A DNA stretch of 42,462 nt from Deinococcales bacterium (GCA_043778225.1 JAYWGM010000014.1:1-42462), one strand, 5' to 3'. Shown: positions 4,503 to 16,038, counted from the stretch's first letter. Made by a program: numbers and translations. The notes: generated by a model from the letters alone, not told the origin.

Positions 4503-5678
4503 TTAATTGGCGTTTAAGAAACTCAAGATGCCTTTTGCAATACCCAAGGCTAGTTTTTGCTGATACCAATTTGTGCCTAGGTTTTTACCTTCGGTTGGGT
4601 GGGTGCCAAAACCAGTTTCGATTAAGATGCTTGGAATACGTGGCTTTTTAATCACCCAGAATTCGGCTTGTTTGACACCTTGGTTGTATGCTCCAGTGCT
4701 GCTGATGAGGTTACTTTGCACCAAACTGGCGAGTTTCCTCGAGTATTTCACATTTAATTGCGCCAATTGGTCGTTGATTAAATCCTGTGCTAAATTTCTG
4801 GCGGCTCGAGTCAGGGCTTTACCAGTGCTGCCCCCGCCGTTTTCACGTTCAGCTTGCGCCAGTGTTTCGGAGTCTGGCGATTGTCCAAACAAATAGGTCG
4901 AAATGCCCTGCGCCCGCGCATCGGCACTGTTGACATGAAGACTGACAAAAGCATTGCGGTCGCTGCTGCCCATGTTGGCTCGAGTATCGAGGTCGCAGCG
5001 TTTATCGCAGCCGTTGTTGCCTTGCCAAGCATAATCGCCAGTGCGCGTCATCACCACAGTAACACCATTATTCTCGAGGATGGCGCGAACTTTAATGGCA
5101 AGGCTTAGGGTAACAATTTTTTCGGTCACATATTTACTCATACCGGGGTCTATGCCACCATGTCCAGCATCTAAGACGACGGTCAATTTTGGTTTGGTTG
5201 GTGTTTTTGGTTTATTGACAACAGGTTTAGCCACAACTGGACTCGAGGTGGTGGTCAGCACCCCAAGTTTTTCGCCAAGGTCAATCACGATGCGGTTAGG
5301 TTGGTCGCCGGTTGGGTCTAAAGTAAAGGCTTTCCAGCCTTTGGAATTACTCATGTTAAAAGTGGTTCGCAATGTCAGGACAACGCCAGTGTTTGCATTT
5401 TCGAGTTCCCACGAAGCCAATTCTGGAGTGTCGCTGCTGCCACTGCCAACGGCGGCTCGAGCCGGACTGATCGTCATTTCAAGGGTTTTACCATTGGCGC
5501 GAATCGAAAATTTGGGTTTGCTGGGGGCATCCAAAACAACCCGTGTAAAACCAGCTTCGCTATGGGCAGCAATACGCGGCGTGCCAACCCCATCGAGTTG
5601 TGCCAAGCCAACCGACAACCCCACAAAAAGCAACACAAAAGCGGCTGCTGATGCTTGGAGCAATCGAAAAAGTCGCAT
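4503..5678 (-). CDS. N-acetylmuramoyl-L-alanine amidase (Amidase_3, AMIN-like N-terminus)
   Basis: Signal peptide, VVLDAGHGGIDPG, FVSLHVNS, PSILIETGF. Confidence 0.92.
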   Translation of the reverse strand: MRLFRLLQASAAAFVLLFVGLSVGLAQLDGVGTPRIAAHSEAGFTRVVLDAPSKPKFSIRANGKTLEMTISPARAAVGSGSSDTPELASWELENANTGVVLTLRTTFNMSNSKGWKAFTLDPTGDQPNRIVIDLGEKLGVLTTTSSPVVAKPVVNKPKTPTKPKLTVVLDAGHGGIDPGMSKYVTEKIVTLSLAIKVRAILENNGVTVVMTRTGDYAWQGNNGCDKRCDLDTRANMGSSDRNAFVSLHVNSADARAQGISTYLFGQSPDSETLAQAERENGGGSTGKALTRAARNLAQDLINDQLAQLNVKYSRKLASLVQSNLISSTGAYNQGVKQAEFWVIKKPRIPSILIETGFGTHPTEGKNLGTNWYQQKLALGIAKGILSFLNAN

Positions 5679-5807: not shown

Positions 5808-6692
5808 AGGTAAAATTTCTCGAGCTTTAATTTTATCGGTTTCGAGTTGGGCAATCAAAGCGGGTAAACCCGAAAATTTTTGTTCACTGCGAATAAATTC
5901 CACAAACTGGACACTGACCTCGAGTCCATAAATATCTTGGTCAAAGTCAAAGATATGAACTTCAAAACTTTCGGTCATGCCACCAATCGTTGGGCGTGTG
6001 CCAATGTTGGCTATTGCGTTGTGCCAAATTCCATCTGGGGTCTCGAGCCGCACTGCATAGACTCCTTTGGGCAGTAATTTGCCTTCTGGCACGGCAATGT
6101 TGGCTGTTGGTGTGCCAATTGTGCGCCCAAGTTGCTGACCCAAGACCACCACACCACTGGCATGATACAAGCGCCCTAGCATCGCGTTAGCTGCCGTAAC
6201 ATTGGCAGTTTCCAGCGCAGAGCGGATGCTCGAGGCATGAACTTCTAAGCCGTTGAGGGTTTTCATCTCGAGGGTGTGAACAGTTGCCAGCGTCTCAAGG
6301 TCGGGAATTCCACCAGCCCGTTTATTGCCAAAGCGAAAATCATGCCCGACGATAATACTTTTGGGATGCAGCGCCCGAATATCCTCTAAAAACGCGCTGG
6401 GCGCTCGGCTCGAGAATTCAAGAGTAAACGGTACAGCAATCACTTCGGCAATACCAAGACTTTGCAGAATCTCAAGTTTTTCGGCGAGAGAATACAAAAA
6501 TTTACTGCCCTGCAAAAGCACTCGAGTTGGCTGGTCAAAGGTAAAAACCACGCTTGGGACATGATGGTTGCTCGCCAAAATTTTAAGTTGCTCGAGCAGC
6601 GCCAAATGCCCGAGGTGCAAACCATCGAAGCTACCAATGGCAACCACACTCTCGGTTTTTGGACGGTCAAACGGGGATTGATACACGCGCAT
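5790..6692 (-). CDS. ribF: Bifunctional riboflavin kinase/FAD synthetase
   Basis: IGSFDGLHLGH, GHDFRFG, GRTIGTPTAN, NIGTRPT, EVHIFDF. Confidence 0.95.
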   Translation of the reverse strand: MRVYQSPFDRPKTESVVAIGSFDGLHLGHLALLEQLKILASNHHVPSVVFTFDQPTRVLLQGSKFLYSLAEKLEILQSLGIAEVIAVPFTLEFSSRAPSAFLEDIRALHPKSIIVGHDFRFGNKRAGGIPDLETLATVHTLEMKTLNGLEVHASSIRSALETANVTAANAMLGRLYHASGVVVLGQQLGRTIGTPTANIAVPEGKLLPKGVYAVRLETPDGIWHNAIANIGTRPTIGGMTESFEVHIFDFDQDIYGLEVSVQFVEFIRSEQKFSGLPALIAQLETDKIKAREILPHHTFT

Positions 6693-6696
6693 TGGG

Positions 6697-8154
6697 TTAT
6701 TTTACGGGCAAATGATGTTGGACATTTAACTTCTCGAGGTGTGGCTCGAGTCGGCTTAGAAAATCTGCGTAATCTCTATTCTTTGGTTGCGACCAAAGCA
6801 CCTCGGACAGCGCACAAAGCCTAGGAAATGCCATGCGCTCAACATCTTTAGGCGTGGGCAGATATTCGCTCCAAAGTTGGCATTGACTGCCCAGCACGTG
6901 CCGCCCTTCAAGTTCGGTCAGTTCGGCTGGAATGGGTTCGTACCCATACACTTTCTCGAGCGTTGTGCAGCCGCCAATGGCTAAAGGTTCGAGGTCGGGG
7001 TTCTCGGTTTGATAATGGTCAAAATAGACATGAGTCCCCGGAGTCATGACCACATCATGCCCAGCTTTAGCCGCAATAATCCCGCCAGCCTCACCACGCC
7101 AAGACATGACCGTTGCGCCATCTACCAAGCCGCCTTCGAGAATTTCATCCCAACCAATCATTTTTCGACCTCGAGATTTGAGAAAAGTGTTGATTCGACC
7201 CACAAAATAACTTTGCAACGCTTCTTCATCCTCGAGATGATTGGCTTTCATGATGTTCTGAGCCACAGCACTTTCTTTCCATTCTTTTTTCGGGCATTCA
7301 TCGCCGCCAATGTGAATGTACGGTGATGGGAAAATCTCGAGAACTTCGGTCAAAACATCCTCGAGAAACGCAAATGTTTTTTCTTCAGGGCTAAAAACGC
7401 TCTCGAACACGCCCCAATTTCCCACGACTTCAGGCGCAATGCCAGTATTGCCAAATTCTGGGTACGCCGCCAGCGCCGCCGTGGCATGACCGGGCATCTC
7501 GATTTCTGGCACGATGGTAATATGACGCTCCGAAGCGTAAGCCACAAGCTCGAGCATTTGGGCTTGGGTGTAAAACCCACCGTGCGGAATGCCATCATAG
7601 ACTTTATTTTCGGCTAAACCATGCCCAATTAAAGTCTGCTTACGCCAAGCCCCAATTTCGGTCATACGCGGATACTTTTTAATTTCGAGCCGCCAACCTT
7701 GGTCGTCGGTCAGGTGCAAATGCAGCATATTCATTTTGTGTAATGCCAACAAGTCCACATATTTTTTCAGCCATTCAAAGGGCATAAAATGCCTCGAGAC
7801 ATCTAAGTGCGAACCGCGCCAAGTAAAACGCGGTGAATCTTTAATCACAACACAACTCGAGTCTCGTTGCAAAAGCGTGACACAACCATAAAAAAGCCCT
7901 GCCAACCCACTCGAGGAAATCCGCACACCAGATTCTCGAATCTCGAGAATATACGCTTCTGGATTGCCTAGATTTTCGGTCAACTCGAGATGAATGCCGT
8001 TCGGTACAGCCTCCCCAATTCTGAGCGGCAAACCGATTTTGGCTTGTAATTTTTTGGCTTCACTCAGCGCGGCAGTGTTACAAGTTATGGCTTGAGCCAA
8101 TTTGAGAAGAAACGCTCCCTCGAGTGGCATAATCTGATTTGGAATTGGAATCAT
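6697..8154 (-). CDS. Beta-N-acetylhexosaminidase (GH20)
   Basis: WRGSHLDVSRH, HLHLTDDQGWR, EIEMPGH, catalytic HIGGDE. Start moved to ATG 8154 (MIPIP). Confidence 0.94.
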   Translation of the reverse strand: MIPIPNQIMPLEGAFLLKLAQAITCNTAALSEAKKLQAKIGLPLRIGEAVPNGIHLELTENLGNPEAYILEIRESGVRISSSGLAGLFYGCVTLLQRDSSCVVIKDSPRFTWRGSHLDVSRHFMPFEWLKKYVDLLALHKMNMLHLHLTDDQGWRLEIKKYPRMTEIGAWRKQTLIGHGLAENKVYDGIPHGGFYTQAQMLELVAYASERHITIVPEIEMPGHATAALAAYPEFGNTGIAPEVVGNWGVFESVFSPEEKTFAFLEDVLTEVLEIFPSPYIHIGGDECPKKEWKESAVAQNIMKANHLEDEEALQSYFVGRINTFLKSRGRKMIGWDEILEGGLVDGATVMSWRGEAGGIIAAKAGHDVVMTPGTHVYFDHYQTENPDLEPLAIGGCTTLEKVYGYEPIPAELTELEGRHVLGSQCQLWSEYLPTPKDVERMAFPRLCALSEVLWSQPKNRDYADFLSRLEPHLEKLNVQHHLPVK

Positions 8155-12350: not shown

Positions 12351-12760
12351 TTACTGACCTTGCACACACGGCTTTTCGGGTTCATGACTTGGCAGCTTCG
12401 CTCGAGTTTTATGCCAAACTTGGTATTCACGAAGCCTTTCGCCTTAACCACACCGACGGCTCGTTGATGTTGGTCTACTTGCACGTTGGCGGCGATAGGT
12501 TTATCGAACTATTTCCGGGTGGTGACGCGCCAAAAGCACTGACCGATAGTTTTATGCACTTGTGTTTGGCATCAAACAGCATCCGCGAGGATGTCGAAAA
12601 ACTTCGCACCCAAGGTGTTGTTATTACCTCGGAAGTCAGTCTAGGGCTTGACAAAAATTTACAAGCATGGCTTGCCGACCCAGATGGCAACCCGATTGAA
12701 TTGATGCAGCTTTCGGAAGATTCACCGCAACGAGCAGTGACTCGAGCCGCCCAGAAATAA
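12347..12760 (+). CDS. VOC/glyoxalase family protein
   Basis: HTAFRVHDL, IELF, HLCL, DPDGNPIEL. Confidence 0.9.
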   Translation: MITDLAHTAFRVHDLAASLEFYAKLGIHEAFRLNHTDGSLMLVYLHVGGDRFIELFPGGDAPKALTDSFMHLCLASNSIREDVEKLRTQGVVITSEVSLGLDKNLQAWLADPDGNPIELMQLSEDSPQRAVTRAAQK

Positions 12761-14263: not shown

Positions 14264-14731
14264 ATGAGTCTCGAGATTGGTCAGCCCGCCCCAGAATTTA
14301 GCGGCACAGACGACACCGGAAAAGTCATTTCACGAAGTAGTTTGTTGGGGCGTTGGGTGGTGCTTTATTTTTACCCTAAGGACAATACCCCGGGTTGCAG
14401 CATCGAAGCCAATAAGTTCGAGCAGATTTTGCCCGAGCTAAACGCGCTTGGCGCAGAAGTGATTGGGGTTTCTACCGACTCTGGTACTTCCCACGCCAAA
14501 TTTCGAGAAAAATGTGGTTTGAGTTTTCCTTTGTTAGCCGATACCGACAAATCGATTGGTAAGGCATACGGCGTGCTTGGCGGTTTAATGGGCATGATTG
14601 GGATTGCGGCTCGTGAAACTTTTTTAATCGACCCCCAAGGCAATTTGGCACAACACTGGAAAATGGTCAATCCAATGACCCATGCTTTGGAAGTCAAACA
14701 AGCACTCGAGAAATTGATTGAAAAAAATTAA
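14264..14731 (+). CDS. bcp: Peroxiredoxin (Bcp/PrxQ)
   Basis: VLYFYPKDNTPGCSIEA, IGVSTD, FPLLAD. Confidence 0.92.
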   Translation: MSLEIGQPAPEFSGTDDTGKVISRSSLLGRWVVLYFYPKDNTPGCSIEANKFEQILPELNALGAEVIGVSTDSGTSHAKFREKCGLSFPLLADTDKSIGKAYGVLGGLMGMIGIAARETFLIDPQGNLAQHWKMVNPMTHALEVKQALEKLIEKN

Positions 14732-14742
14732 AATAGGCAGAC

Positions 14743-14770
14743 TTGACATTTGAAATCTAGTTGGTATACT
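14743..14770 (+). promoter_or_regulatory. Near-consensus sigma70 promoter of the ncRNA
   Basis: TTGACA (14743-14748), 16-bp spacer, extended TGn-TATACT (14765-14770); no downstream ORF on the + strand. Confidence 0.85.
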
Positions 14771-14775
14771 TTCTA

Positions 14776-14900
14776 CCAGGATGCGGCAGACGCGTAGTCA
14801 TACGCGACATCCCGTTACCCGAAAGGGTCGAGGCTGGTCCGGTAAAGACGATCTGAATACCAAGGTAGCCCTTGGCGAAGCCCCTCAAGGGGGCTTTGTT
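14776..14900 (+). ncRNA. sroH: SroH-like structured small RNA (~120 nt)
   Basis: Own promoter and terminator. Stems GGATG/CATCC, CGCGTA/TACGCG, ACCC-GAAA-GGGT and CCAAGG/CCTTGG. Blocks CCAGGATG.GCAGA, ACATCCCG, GGTC.AGGC, GTCCGGTAA, TCTGAATACCA and TGGCGAA match E. coli SroH as I recall it. Convergent on a yjaZ homologue, as in E. coli. Confidence 0.8.
14878..14900 (+). terminator. Intrinsic terminator of the SroH-like RNA
   Basis: AAGCCCCT-CAA-GGGGGCTT followed by TGTTATTT. Confidence 0.8.
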
Positions 14901-14903
14901 ATT

Positions 14904-15428
14904 TCATGGGTTTGATTTCAATGGCTTACCAAGCAGGGCATTTTTGGCAATTACAAAAAATCCCCTTGGTTTGGTTTTTTCCAAAGATGAAACTCTGTGG
15001 GCAGTTTCGATATGAAGACGCAATTTCTTTTCTTCTCGATAAGCCTTAAAGACGATTTTATAATAAATTTTTCGACCTGATTCATCAAAAATATGTATAA
15101 GTGCCGATTTTTCATAGCCAGCATCAAATGTGTGGCAATTGGGTAAATTATTAATAATTTCAGGCAATTTTGTCGAGTCGTGATAACGCTCAAAATGAAA
15201 TGGTCGCTTATCTCTTGGGGCGCTATACATCAGTTCTTGCCTTTCTAGAAGCGTTAAATCGTCACTATCTTTGGCAAAACAATGAAAACTGTATGTAACA
15301 AAAAACGTGTATGTTTTTCCGTTTTTTGGATCTGTGAATGATAATTTTTTAGCATTGAGGTGCGATAAATCATAATTTCTTCCTCTATAGGAAAAATCGT
15401 GCCATTTTTCAGTTTCGTTGTAGTGCAT
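14904..15428 (-). CDS. yjaZ: YjaZ/HtrC-family protein (function unknown)
   Basis: EKW..F, DLSHL, F.VTYS.HCF.KD, LMY.AP...RPF..ERY, AGY, F.A.RE.KKLRLH..TA and FF.IA.N.L align with E. coli YjaZ as recalled. AT-rich, no CTCGAG. Confidence 0.85.
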   Translation of the reverse strand: MHYNETEKWHDFSYRGRNYDLSHLNAKKLSFTDPKNGKTYTFFVTYSFHCFAKDSDDLTLLERQELMYSAPRDKRPFHFERYHDSTKLPEIINNLPNCHTFDAGYEKSALIHIFDESGRKIYYKIVFKAYREEKKLRLHIETAHRVSSLEKTKPRGFFVIAKNALLGKPLKSNP

Positions 15429-15485
15429 CTATTTTGATTGTATCAATCTTTATCTATAAGAAGCCTCGTTTTACCTTGGTATCCA

Positions 15486-15519
15486 ATAAAAGGAGGACGA
15501 GCGCCTTGGTCTCGTCCTC
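15486..15519 (-). terminator. ddrO terminator
   Basis: GAGGACGAG (15493-15501)/CTCGTCCTC (15511-15519) stem followed by CTTTTATT on the - strand. Confidence 0.7.
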
Positions 15520-15534
15520 GCACTCGTCCTTAAT

Positions 15535-15924
15535 TTACTCGAGGATGCGTTTTAAGTTGCGGTAAATGTCGTACCAGTCTTCTTTGGTTTGTGGACGTTT
15601 GCCACGCAGTTCGATACGGGCAAGGCTCGAGACCCAATCTGGGGTAATTTGACCGCCCAAAACAGGGTCAGCCACCAATTCGGCAAGTCCTTTTGGCAAG
15701 GCTTGGGTGCTGATTTCGCCGTAAAATTCAACTGGGCTTAACAGGTCATGAACCGTGATGTCGTAAGAGGCAGCCAAGGTTTGCAACGTCTCGAGGCTTG
15801 GGTTGGTGCGTCCGCGTTCCAAGTCCGAAAGATATGGGATGCTGATACCAGCAATTTCGCTGACATCTTTGAGGCGTTGACCGCGTTCAGAGCGGAGTTC
15901 GCGCAGGCGTTCGTGGAGTTTCAT
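15535..15924 (-). CDS. ddrO: XRE-family radiation/desiccation response repressor DdrO
   Basis: 129 aa, [15 protein letters not shown]...[17 protein letters not shown]...RIELRGKRP (IrrE/PprI cleavage site EL|RG); GGAGG RBS. Confidence 0.96.
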
Positions 15925-16038
15925 GGGTGTTCCTCCTGTTCTCGAGAGGTGAAGGGTTTGCTCGGGCAGGAGCTTAGAGCGCACCATCTCGAGTTTCGTC
16001 GTCCTTGTAAATTCGTGACGACAATTCTGCTTGTGACG

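Follow-up and report, generated by a model that had tools for sequence, protein, structure and literature searches.

A SroH-family RNA with a conserved, covarying multi-helix fold is paired with yjaZ in a mobile two-gene cassette

Within a 42,462-nucleotide stretch of DNA from a Deinococcales bacterium (GCA_043778225.1, JAYWGM010000014.1:1-42462; referred to here as the window), a SroH-family RNA of ~125 nt (14777-14904, + strand) and a convergent yjaZ homologue encoding 174 aa (14904-15428, - strand), the stop codon of which (14904-06) touches the RNA tail, constitute a self-contained, horizontally mobile two-gene cassette. Comparison of homologous sequences supports the RNA as a conserved multi-helix fold with covarying stems and invariant unpaired junctions. 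The RNA family itself is known by homology but uncharacterised; three features appear to be new: a fold of several helices that includes a long-range one, a distribution of the family that crosses phyla, and a fixed pairing with YjaZ in a mobile cassette. We tentatively suggest that the folded RNA may act as the partner, or even the antidote, of YjaZ.

The RNA is independently promoted and terminator-ended. A sigma-70-type promoter with 11/12 consensus matches and an extended -10 element is located at 14743-14770 (+; TTGACA, 16 nt, TG-TATACT), and the RNA begins ~7 bases past it and finishes with a G+C hairpin and the tail UUUGUUAUUU, its 5′ end being predicted by the promoter and its 3′ end by the tail of the terminator. 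Among 75 distinct upstream regions, 56 carry a -10 box 4 to 11 bases before P1, the first helix of the RNA, and 42 of these 56 have a -35 box too; the promoter of the window is nearer to P1 than that of E. coli. A consensus terminator scan has no match at the 3′ end of the RNA because the T run is interrupted. Single-sequence folding does not tell the two strands apart (z of -2.46 for + versus -2.93 for -); rather, + is taken as the functional strand because one G-U pair of the terminator is invariant (77/77 sequences) and the promoter is conserved. RNA-seq runs that match the E. coli stretch, 24 in number, do so as contigs, and the 4 that were examined span the whole 1 kb in one piece and are uninformative on ends, strand and level. 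No conserved reading frame was found in the homologues, the conserved blocks of which lie in 21 different frame combinations, and a 44-codon ORF (14781-14915) was rejected as spurious, with ORFs from the conserved AUG measuring 1 to 54 codons across homologues. A search for tandem repeats between 14600 and 15500 found none.

SroH has stood on the list of E. coli small RNAs since 2003, and the E. coli locus displays the same helices, the same linkers and a convergent yjaZ neighbour. The window RNA matches the Rfam sroH model (RF00372) with 55.2 bits and an E-value of 2.5e-12 over model positions 1-161, that is, over its full length, which falls below the gathering score of 80 bits; by sequence homology it is a distant homologue of E. 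coli SroH that lies outside the curated threshold. At gathering scores, the whole window has no Rfam match, and at E-value thresholds sroH is the sole match not due to chance. The covariance model R1 finds both the copy of the window (locus L001, 132.5 bits) and that of E. coli (125.6 bits), and 84 further matches lie between the two. When six loci were scanned at the Rfam gathering score, only E. coli (201 bits) and one Methylococcaceae copy (81.7 bits) were recognised, and the cyanobacterial and Deinococcota copies among the six gave no Rfam family. The Rfam sroH model marks the terminator helix only; five more helices are supported by the comparison of homologues. The 71 loci of YjaZ relatives, drawn from one-genome-per-species contigs, are mostly cyanobacterial and include Deinococcota, Enterobacterales, Methylococcaceae, Thiomargarita, Woeseiaceae and Ferrimonas, as well as MAGs labelled Planctomycetota, Rubrobacter and Rhizobium. 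For E. coli, sroH is listed among paraphyletic small RNAs (PMC3318445), a full-length SroH transcript is reported together with processed forms (PMC5389530), and a 2026 paper (PMC13572404) describes SroH by its deletion phenotype only.

The 5′ domain of the RNA is formed by helix P1 (GGATG 14779-83/CATCC 14808-12; 99% paired, two pairs changed on both sides) and helix P2 (CGCGTA 14791-96/TACGCG 14801-06; 96% paired, four pairs changed on both sides), between which lies a conserved internal loop comprising CGGCAGA (14784-90) and A14807. A three-way junction follows (14813-14850), where helix Pa encloses P3 (14817-20/14825-28, within ACCC-GAAA-GGGT at 14817-28) together with the two-pair helix P4 (14832-33/14839-40), the remaining parts of the junction being CGA and GGUAA (14841-45). 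Pa itself is long-range and brings CGUU (14813-16) together with A-G-ACG (14846 and 14848-50), leaving G14847 bulged; all four of its pairs are changed on both sides, 99% of cells are paired and the bulged G is invariant in homologues. From the junction, the near-invariant linker AUCUGAAUA (14851-14859) leads into the P5 hairpin, CCAAGG-UAGC-CCUUGG (14860-75; 98.5% paired, five of six pairs changed on both sides), and then into the terminator region (14876-14904), which consists of a hairpin (14876-84/14890-98; 100% paired, 6/10 pairs changed on both sides) and a conserved tail UUAUUU, and in which TTGTTA is invariant. All of these elements lie on the + strand.

Five of these stems, P1, P2, P3, P5 and the terminator (14876-98), had been described in an earlier note on this DNA, as had the pairing CAGA/TCTG, with the letters and coordinates seen here, and all five are recovered by RNAalifold from an alignment of 57 distinct homologues (211 columns), where 17 of the 33 pairs show compensatory change. 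Invariant columns number 47 in this alignment, mostly in linkers, and hold across cyanobacteria, Deinococcota, several gammaproteobacterial families and MAGs labelled Planctomycetota and Rubrobacter. A second alignment, of 86 model-aligned copies (77 distinct), in which fitting to the model favours structure, has 98.3% of cells paired and 23 of 40 pairs changed on both sides; a MAFFT alignment that is independent of the model has 97.6% paired. Covariation was judged by pair counts against shuffles, and none of 500 shuffles reached any of five measures, slid controls being only 33-51% paired. The E. coli stems given in the earlier note (CTGAA/TTCAG and CCAGAG/CTCTGG) are present in the E. coli loci. 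The pattern claimed in that note, of stems that vary and keep pairing between near-identical linkers, is reproduced across the homologues, and the homologue alignment that it had proposed as a check yields double changes beyond those of the shuffles.

Other parts of the proposed structure fared differently. The short hairpin GTC-CGGTAAA-GAC had to be given up in favour of the long-range Pa, being only 74.9% paired and unpaired at one pair in 34 of 57 sequences, and the loop of P3, described as a GNRA tetraloop, varies among homologues, although its helix stands. A first register of Pa, with a U-G closing pair, was dropped for the bulged-G register after phage and enterobacterial copies were compared, and a UUACC-GGUAA pairing was dropped, since the UU positions vary and GGUAA is invariant. 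The candidate pseudoknot between CAGA (14787-90) and UCUG (14852-55, within the linker) may possibly tie invariant unpaired stretches together: no sequence contradicts it, and a single pair is variable (AU in 73, GC in 2, of 75 with letters), the A-U to G-C double change belonging to a single lineage of two Deinococcota relatives, but a rival pairing of CGG (14840-42) with CUG fits the same sequences equally well. All-against-all mutual information gave no further tertiary pair, and after the helices its list is dominated by lineage-specific changes of enterobacteria. The single-sequence MFE fold (-48.7 kcal/mol) differs in its central part from the comparative fold (-37.6 kcal/mol, pseudoknot left out). 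In four loci, P2 carries insertions of ~70-100 nt (L036 2005-2220, -; L054 about 1140-1369, +; L063 1902-2120, -; L068 1291-1476, -); the insert in L036 contains an AGGAGG-ATG start, from which a frame stays open, probably by chance, through the conserved core until the UAA within GGUAAA.

The partner protein is, by homology, a member of the YjaZ family and not an equivalog, with an E-value of 6.3e-35 and 120.8 bits against NCBIfam NF007263, the equivalog cut-off of which is 324; together with the sroH match, this bears out the earlier identification of the pair as SroH and YjaZ. According to PMC11551758, YjaZ has lost its original functional designation. PF27200 is precomputed for the window protein and 38 relatives; a local Pfam copy, PADLOC and PHROG returned no family match for YjaZ, and no sequence relatives were found in the PDB. 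The wider family comprises 958 representatives when the E-value is limited to 0.001 and 403 when it is limited to 1e-10. Invariant residues of YjaZ include H49, C50, R75, R81, Y82, R137 and H139. An AlphaFold model (pLDDT 84.5, pTM 0.78) retrieved nothing from the PDB by Foldseek at E 0.001 or better. The top rows of a wide structure search (Z 4.9 to 3.0) are occupied almost entirely by RelE-family toxins, BrnT, CdiA-CT tRNases, HigB, YoeB, ParE and YafQ, and an independent search of the ESM Atlas returned clusters of PBECR2/3, DUF4258, RelE/ParE and Gp49 with TM values of 0.36-0.45 by query; hhalign of YjaZ against a plasmid ParE detected no similarity. We take the resemblance of the predicted model to the RNase-like RelE/BrnT (BECR) fold as a lead and not as a finding.

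The association of the two genes is close. Searches with the window RNA, confirmed by the covariance model, place an RNA beside yjaZ in 67 of the 71 loci, and the other four are as follows: in L045 and L073 the contig end is reached, L075 holds a YjaZ fragment of 64 residues near a contig end, and L072 combines a frameshifted yjaZ with an RNA remnant of 10.6 bits. Approached from the RNA, a degenerate pattern found 118 metagenome stretches, 13 of which have the RNA, the others being chance matches; yjaZ is adjacent in 10 of these 13 loci and on the one viral contig. An even sample of 151 cyanobacterial genomes contains both genes, adjacent, in 7, the RNA only in 2, a 58-residue YjaZ fragment only in 1 and neither in 141. 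An intact yjaZ without the RNA was found nowhere that the downstream DNA could be read.

By contrast, the RNA alone does occur. RNA-only IncFII plasmids of Enterobacter and Klebsiella carry copies of 104-107 bits convergent to ParE/RelB; the neighbours in the three RNA-only metagenome loci (of 13) are a RelB-like gene, a DUF433 and DUF5615 PIN-like pair, and DUF2887, and those in the two RNA-only cyanobacterial genomes (of 9 that bear the RNA) are a HicB-like gene and DUF2887. Type II toxin-antitoxin genes are the convergent neighbours in four RNA-only settings (ParE/RelB, DUF433 with DUF5615, RelB-like and HicB-like). That the RNA occurs alone and an intact yjaZ does not is the pattern expected of a toxin and its antidote, an asymmetry observed here in few independent events. 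On two IncFII plasmids (L196 4992-5729 and L199 2992-3729), a full-length RNA without yjaZ lies downstream of DUF2913 with a tyrosine recombinase beyond, and in L199 an NYN-domain gene also precedes the RNA. DUF2887 is the neighbour in two independent RNA-only cyanobacterial loci (L112 882-1421 and L214 637-1416); this family is related to the Rpn-type recombination-promoting nucleases, a relation that might account for yjaZ having been lost from these loci.

The cassette of the window measures ~0.8 kb (14732-15534, boundaries approximate) and lies between bcp (14264-14731) and an HTH gene (15535-15987, -). In three genomes of the same genus (G003, G004 and G005), bcp and the HTH gene are ~50 bases apart, which represents the empty site, and in a fourth (G001; L203 2408-3165) the same site is occupied by a Gp49/HigB-like gene, with a weak Gp49 match (20.7 bits against a cut-off of 23.9), and an HTH_3 gene. 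The bcp-HTH site looks like a hot spot for cassettes of the toxin-antitoxin type. Only 2 of 7 other genomes of the genus have the RNA, on other contigs and with 67% identity. Plasmid records with the RNA number 45, their neighbours including partition and recombinase genes, and the cassette is present in 3722 of 5426 complete E. coli genomes (69%). An 11.6-kb Leclercia plasmid (L198) bears two identical copies of the cassette, at 784-934 and 6606-6756, with a recombinase gene near each. In its empty sites, swaps, plasmid carriage and patchiness, the cassette behaves like typical toxin-antitoxin genes.

The junction core of the RNA is found in phages as well. In T4, where the RNA is unannotated, model R1 matches between denV and vs.8 with only 20.4 bits (E 6.5e-4, in 22 kb with filters off), and the T4 element in turn matches 1049 phage records; blastn searches of phages with either the window RNA or E. 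coli SroH as the query gave nothing useful, the link being made via the covariance model and the T4 element only. The junction of these T4-type and rV5-type RNAs is the same: six phages, drawn from five genera or groups, all retain ACC...GGU, CGA, GGUAA, the bulged G and Pa in the core, and a comparison of 16 cores from bacteria and phages shows GGUAA and the bulged G in every one. P4 is GC/GC in phages versus GG/CC in bacteria, a compensatory difference. Missing from the phage copies is the whole 3′ half, namely the UCUGAAUACC linker, P5 and the terminator, and the 5′ domain differs. No yjaZ lies beside the phage cores; rather, in T4, KP1, RZH and Merlin the core is positioned just upstream of a vs.8-type P-loop gene. 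In T4 (L201 4832-4949, -, corresponding to about 64831-64948 of the record), the annotated start of vs.8 (position 4913 of the locus) falls inside the P2 loop of the RNA, so that the N-terminus assigned to Vs.8 probably lies over a non-coding RNA. R1 has one further, weaker match in T4 (17.3 bits), at 12527-12649, beside the tRNA cluster.

We suggest that the folded RNA is the partner or antidote of an RNase-like YjaZ, a reading that we place a little short of an even chance and for the binding step of which gene linkage is the evidence. The RNA, which has a strong promoter and a terminator to itself, would bind YjaZ via its invariant junction and loop nucleotides. Bound YjaZ would be held inactive or, alternatively, the RNA would be a dedicated substrate or cofactor of YjaZ; the pair could then form a toxin-antidote-like module with an RNA antidote, in which YjaZ would have presumptive RNase activity and toxicity. 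Several observations speak against an antidote. An E. coli sroH deletion is reported to be viable and merely sensitive to envelope stress (PMC5389530 and PMC13572404), and viability would be unexpected if the sole antidote of an active toxin were removed. The structural matches of YjaZ are weak, with Z below 5, TM by query below 0.5 and no profile support, and the RNA is neither built of repeats nor, apart from its position in L054, placed upstream as in the known type III antidotes. The asymmetry rests on few independent events. Since the RNA is retained at loci that lack yjaZ and the 1049 phage records contain its core, the function of the RNA may not depend on YjaZ.

The layout of the two genes, convergent and abutting in all two-gene loci but one, with the RNA tail and terminator against the yjaZ stop codon, would suit a cis-antisense arrangement resembling type I systems, in which the RNA or its read-through base-pairs to the 3′ end of the yjaZ mRNA and determines how stable that mRNA is, while the folded body only stabilises the RNA. 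Indeed, yjaZ transcripts probably run into the RNA gene because only two U follow the shared hairpin on the yjaZ strand, and the same convergent layout recurs with ParE/RelB on plasmids. In the one exception, however, L054 of Thiomargarita, the RNA is upstream of yjaZ on the same strand. Furthermore, perfect complementarity in cis needs neither invariant unpaired nucleotides nor helices that covary across phyla; the core exists in phages and in RNA-only loci, and no conserved yjaZ 5′ leader was found with which the RNA might pair in trans. We regard antisense control as unlikely, although some antisense contribution may exist. The preference of the earlier note for a tertiary-folded RNA over a simple antisense RNA agrees with the conservation of the fold, the phage cores without yjaZ and the tandem arrangement in L054, but not with regard to catalysis, for which there is no ribozyme match. 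A -10-like box (e.g. TACAAT or TATAAT) lies 7-15 bases before many yjaZ starts, without a Shine-Dalgarno sequence, as in the window (15429-15460) and in L005, L026, L028, L041 and L049, which suggests leaderless or near-leaderless mRNAs.

A junction core shared with 1049 phage records, and positioned upstream of the vs.8-type gene in four of the phages, could also belong to an autonomous RNA, a riboswitch-like sensor or a decoy of some conserved component of the cell, in which the junction binds a small molecule or a host factor and YjaZ is merely regulated by the RNA or travels with it. The RNA-only loci fit such a sensor, as does L054, where the RNA and its terminator precede yjaZ like a leader; moreover, E. 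coli SroA and SroG turned out to be terminated riboswitches. Against it, the usual layout has no same-strand gene downstream of the RNA, and there is none in the window, no Rfam riboswitch was matched, an unsystematic look found no antiterminator pairing, and the phage copies lack UCUGAAUACC, P5 and the terminator. We consider the sensor, too, to be rather improbable.

Distinctly doubtful is a new RNA-protein class of toxin-antidote or abortive-infection systems, where a RelE-like RNase is checked by a single pseudoknotted, non-repetitive RNA and the core of T4- and rV5-like phages would be a mimic that disarms YjaZ in enterobacterial hosts. In our view it is very unlikely that the RNA is a conventional small RNA that acts in trans by base pairing in the envelope-stress response, which is how E. 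coli SroH is currently described: in vitro, SroH is reported to bind kbl mRNA (PMC6172242), and the envelope-stress sensitivity of the deletion (PMC5389530 and PMC13572404) points the same way, but an RNA that acts through a seed would not retain 47 invariant positions together with a covarying fold across phyla with differing mRNA targets, and neither the strict tie to yjaZ nor the mobility of the cassette would be explained. A self-cleaving or otherwise catalytic RNA is hardly credible: the junction is compact, with invariant unpaired nucleotides, and CUGAAUA ... CGAAG presumably bears a loose resemblance to the hammerhead core, but its letters differ at positions that are essential in the hammerhead, no Rfam ribozyme family matches at E up to 10 in 14650-15000, and the full-length transcript is reported beside the processed forms in E. 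coli (PMC5389530).

A literature search found no paper that names both sroH and yjaZ, and in papers that mention sroH and antitoxin, the sroH passages available draw no link between the two. With the cassette described here, one conserved mobile unit spans Deinococcota, cyanobacteria, enterobacteria and enterobacterial plasmids, and two orphan E. coli genes can be put directly to the test as an RNA-protein pair. Were the toxin-antidote reading true, the cassette would represent a new architecture among RNA-antidote systems, and an RNA that is unannotated would gain a role in about a thousand T4-like phage genomes.

Among known systems, the convergent type I pairs of Bacillus subtilis with 3′ overlap, txpA/RatA and bsrG/SR4, share with the cassette the convergent layout in which the 3′ end of the RNA meets that of the protein gene. 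In contrast, YjaZ has 174 residues and no hydrophobic-peptide character, the RNA structure is conserved across phyla, and the RNA lies wholly outside the yjaZ coding region, so that it could overlap at most with the 3′ UTR. RelE/ParE/BrnT toxins come closest to YjaZ in structure, though only weakly so, over residues of about 40-150; they resemble it in genomic behaviour, and such genes take the place of yjaZ in RNA-only loci, but there is no similarity in sequence or profile, YjaZ is ~twice as long and no gene for a protein antitoxin adjoins it. In the type III systems ToxIN, CptIN and TenpIN, the antidote is a tandem-repeat RNA encoded upstream of the toxin gene, whereas the SroH-like RNA has a single complex fold without tandem repeats and is convergent except in L054, and the YjaZ model resembles RelE/BrnT rather than ToxN and has no Pfam or PADLOC family. 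Nevertheless, the likeness to type III systems extends to an orphan RNA being tolerated and an orphan protein not being seen, and to a small non-coding RNA tied to a putative RNase-like protein in a mobile, plasmid-borne and patchily distributed unit.
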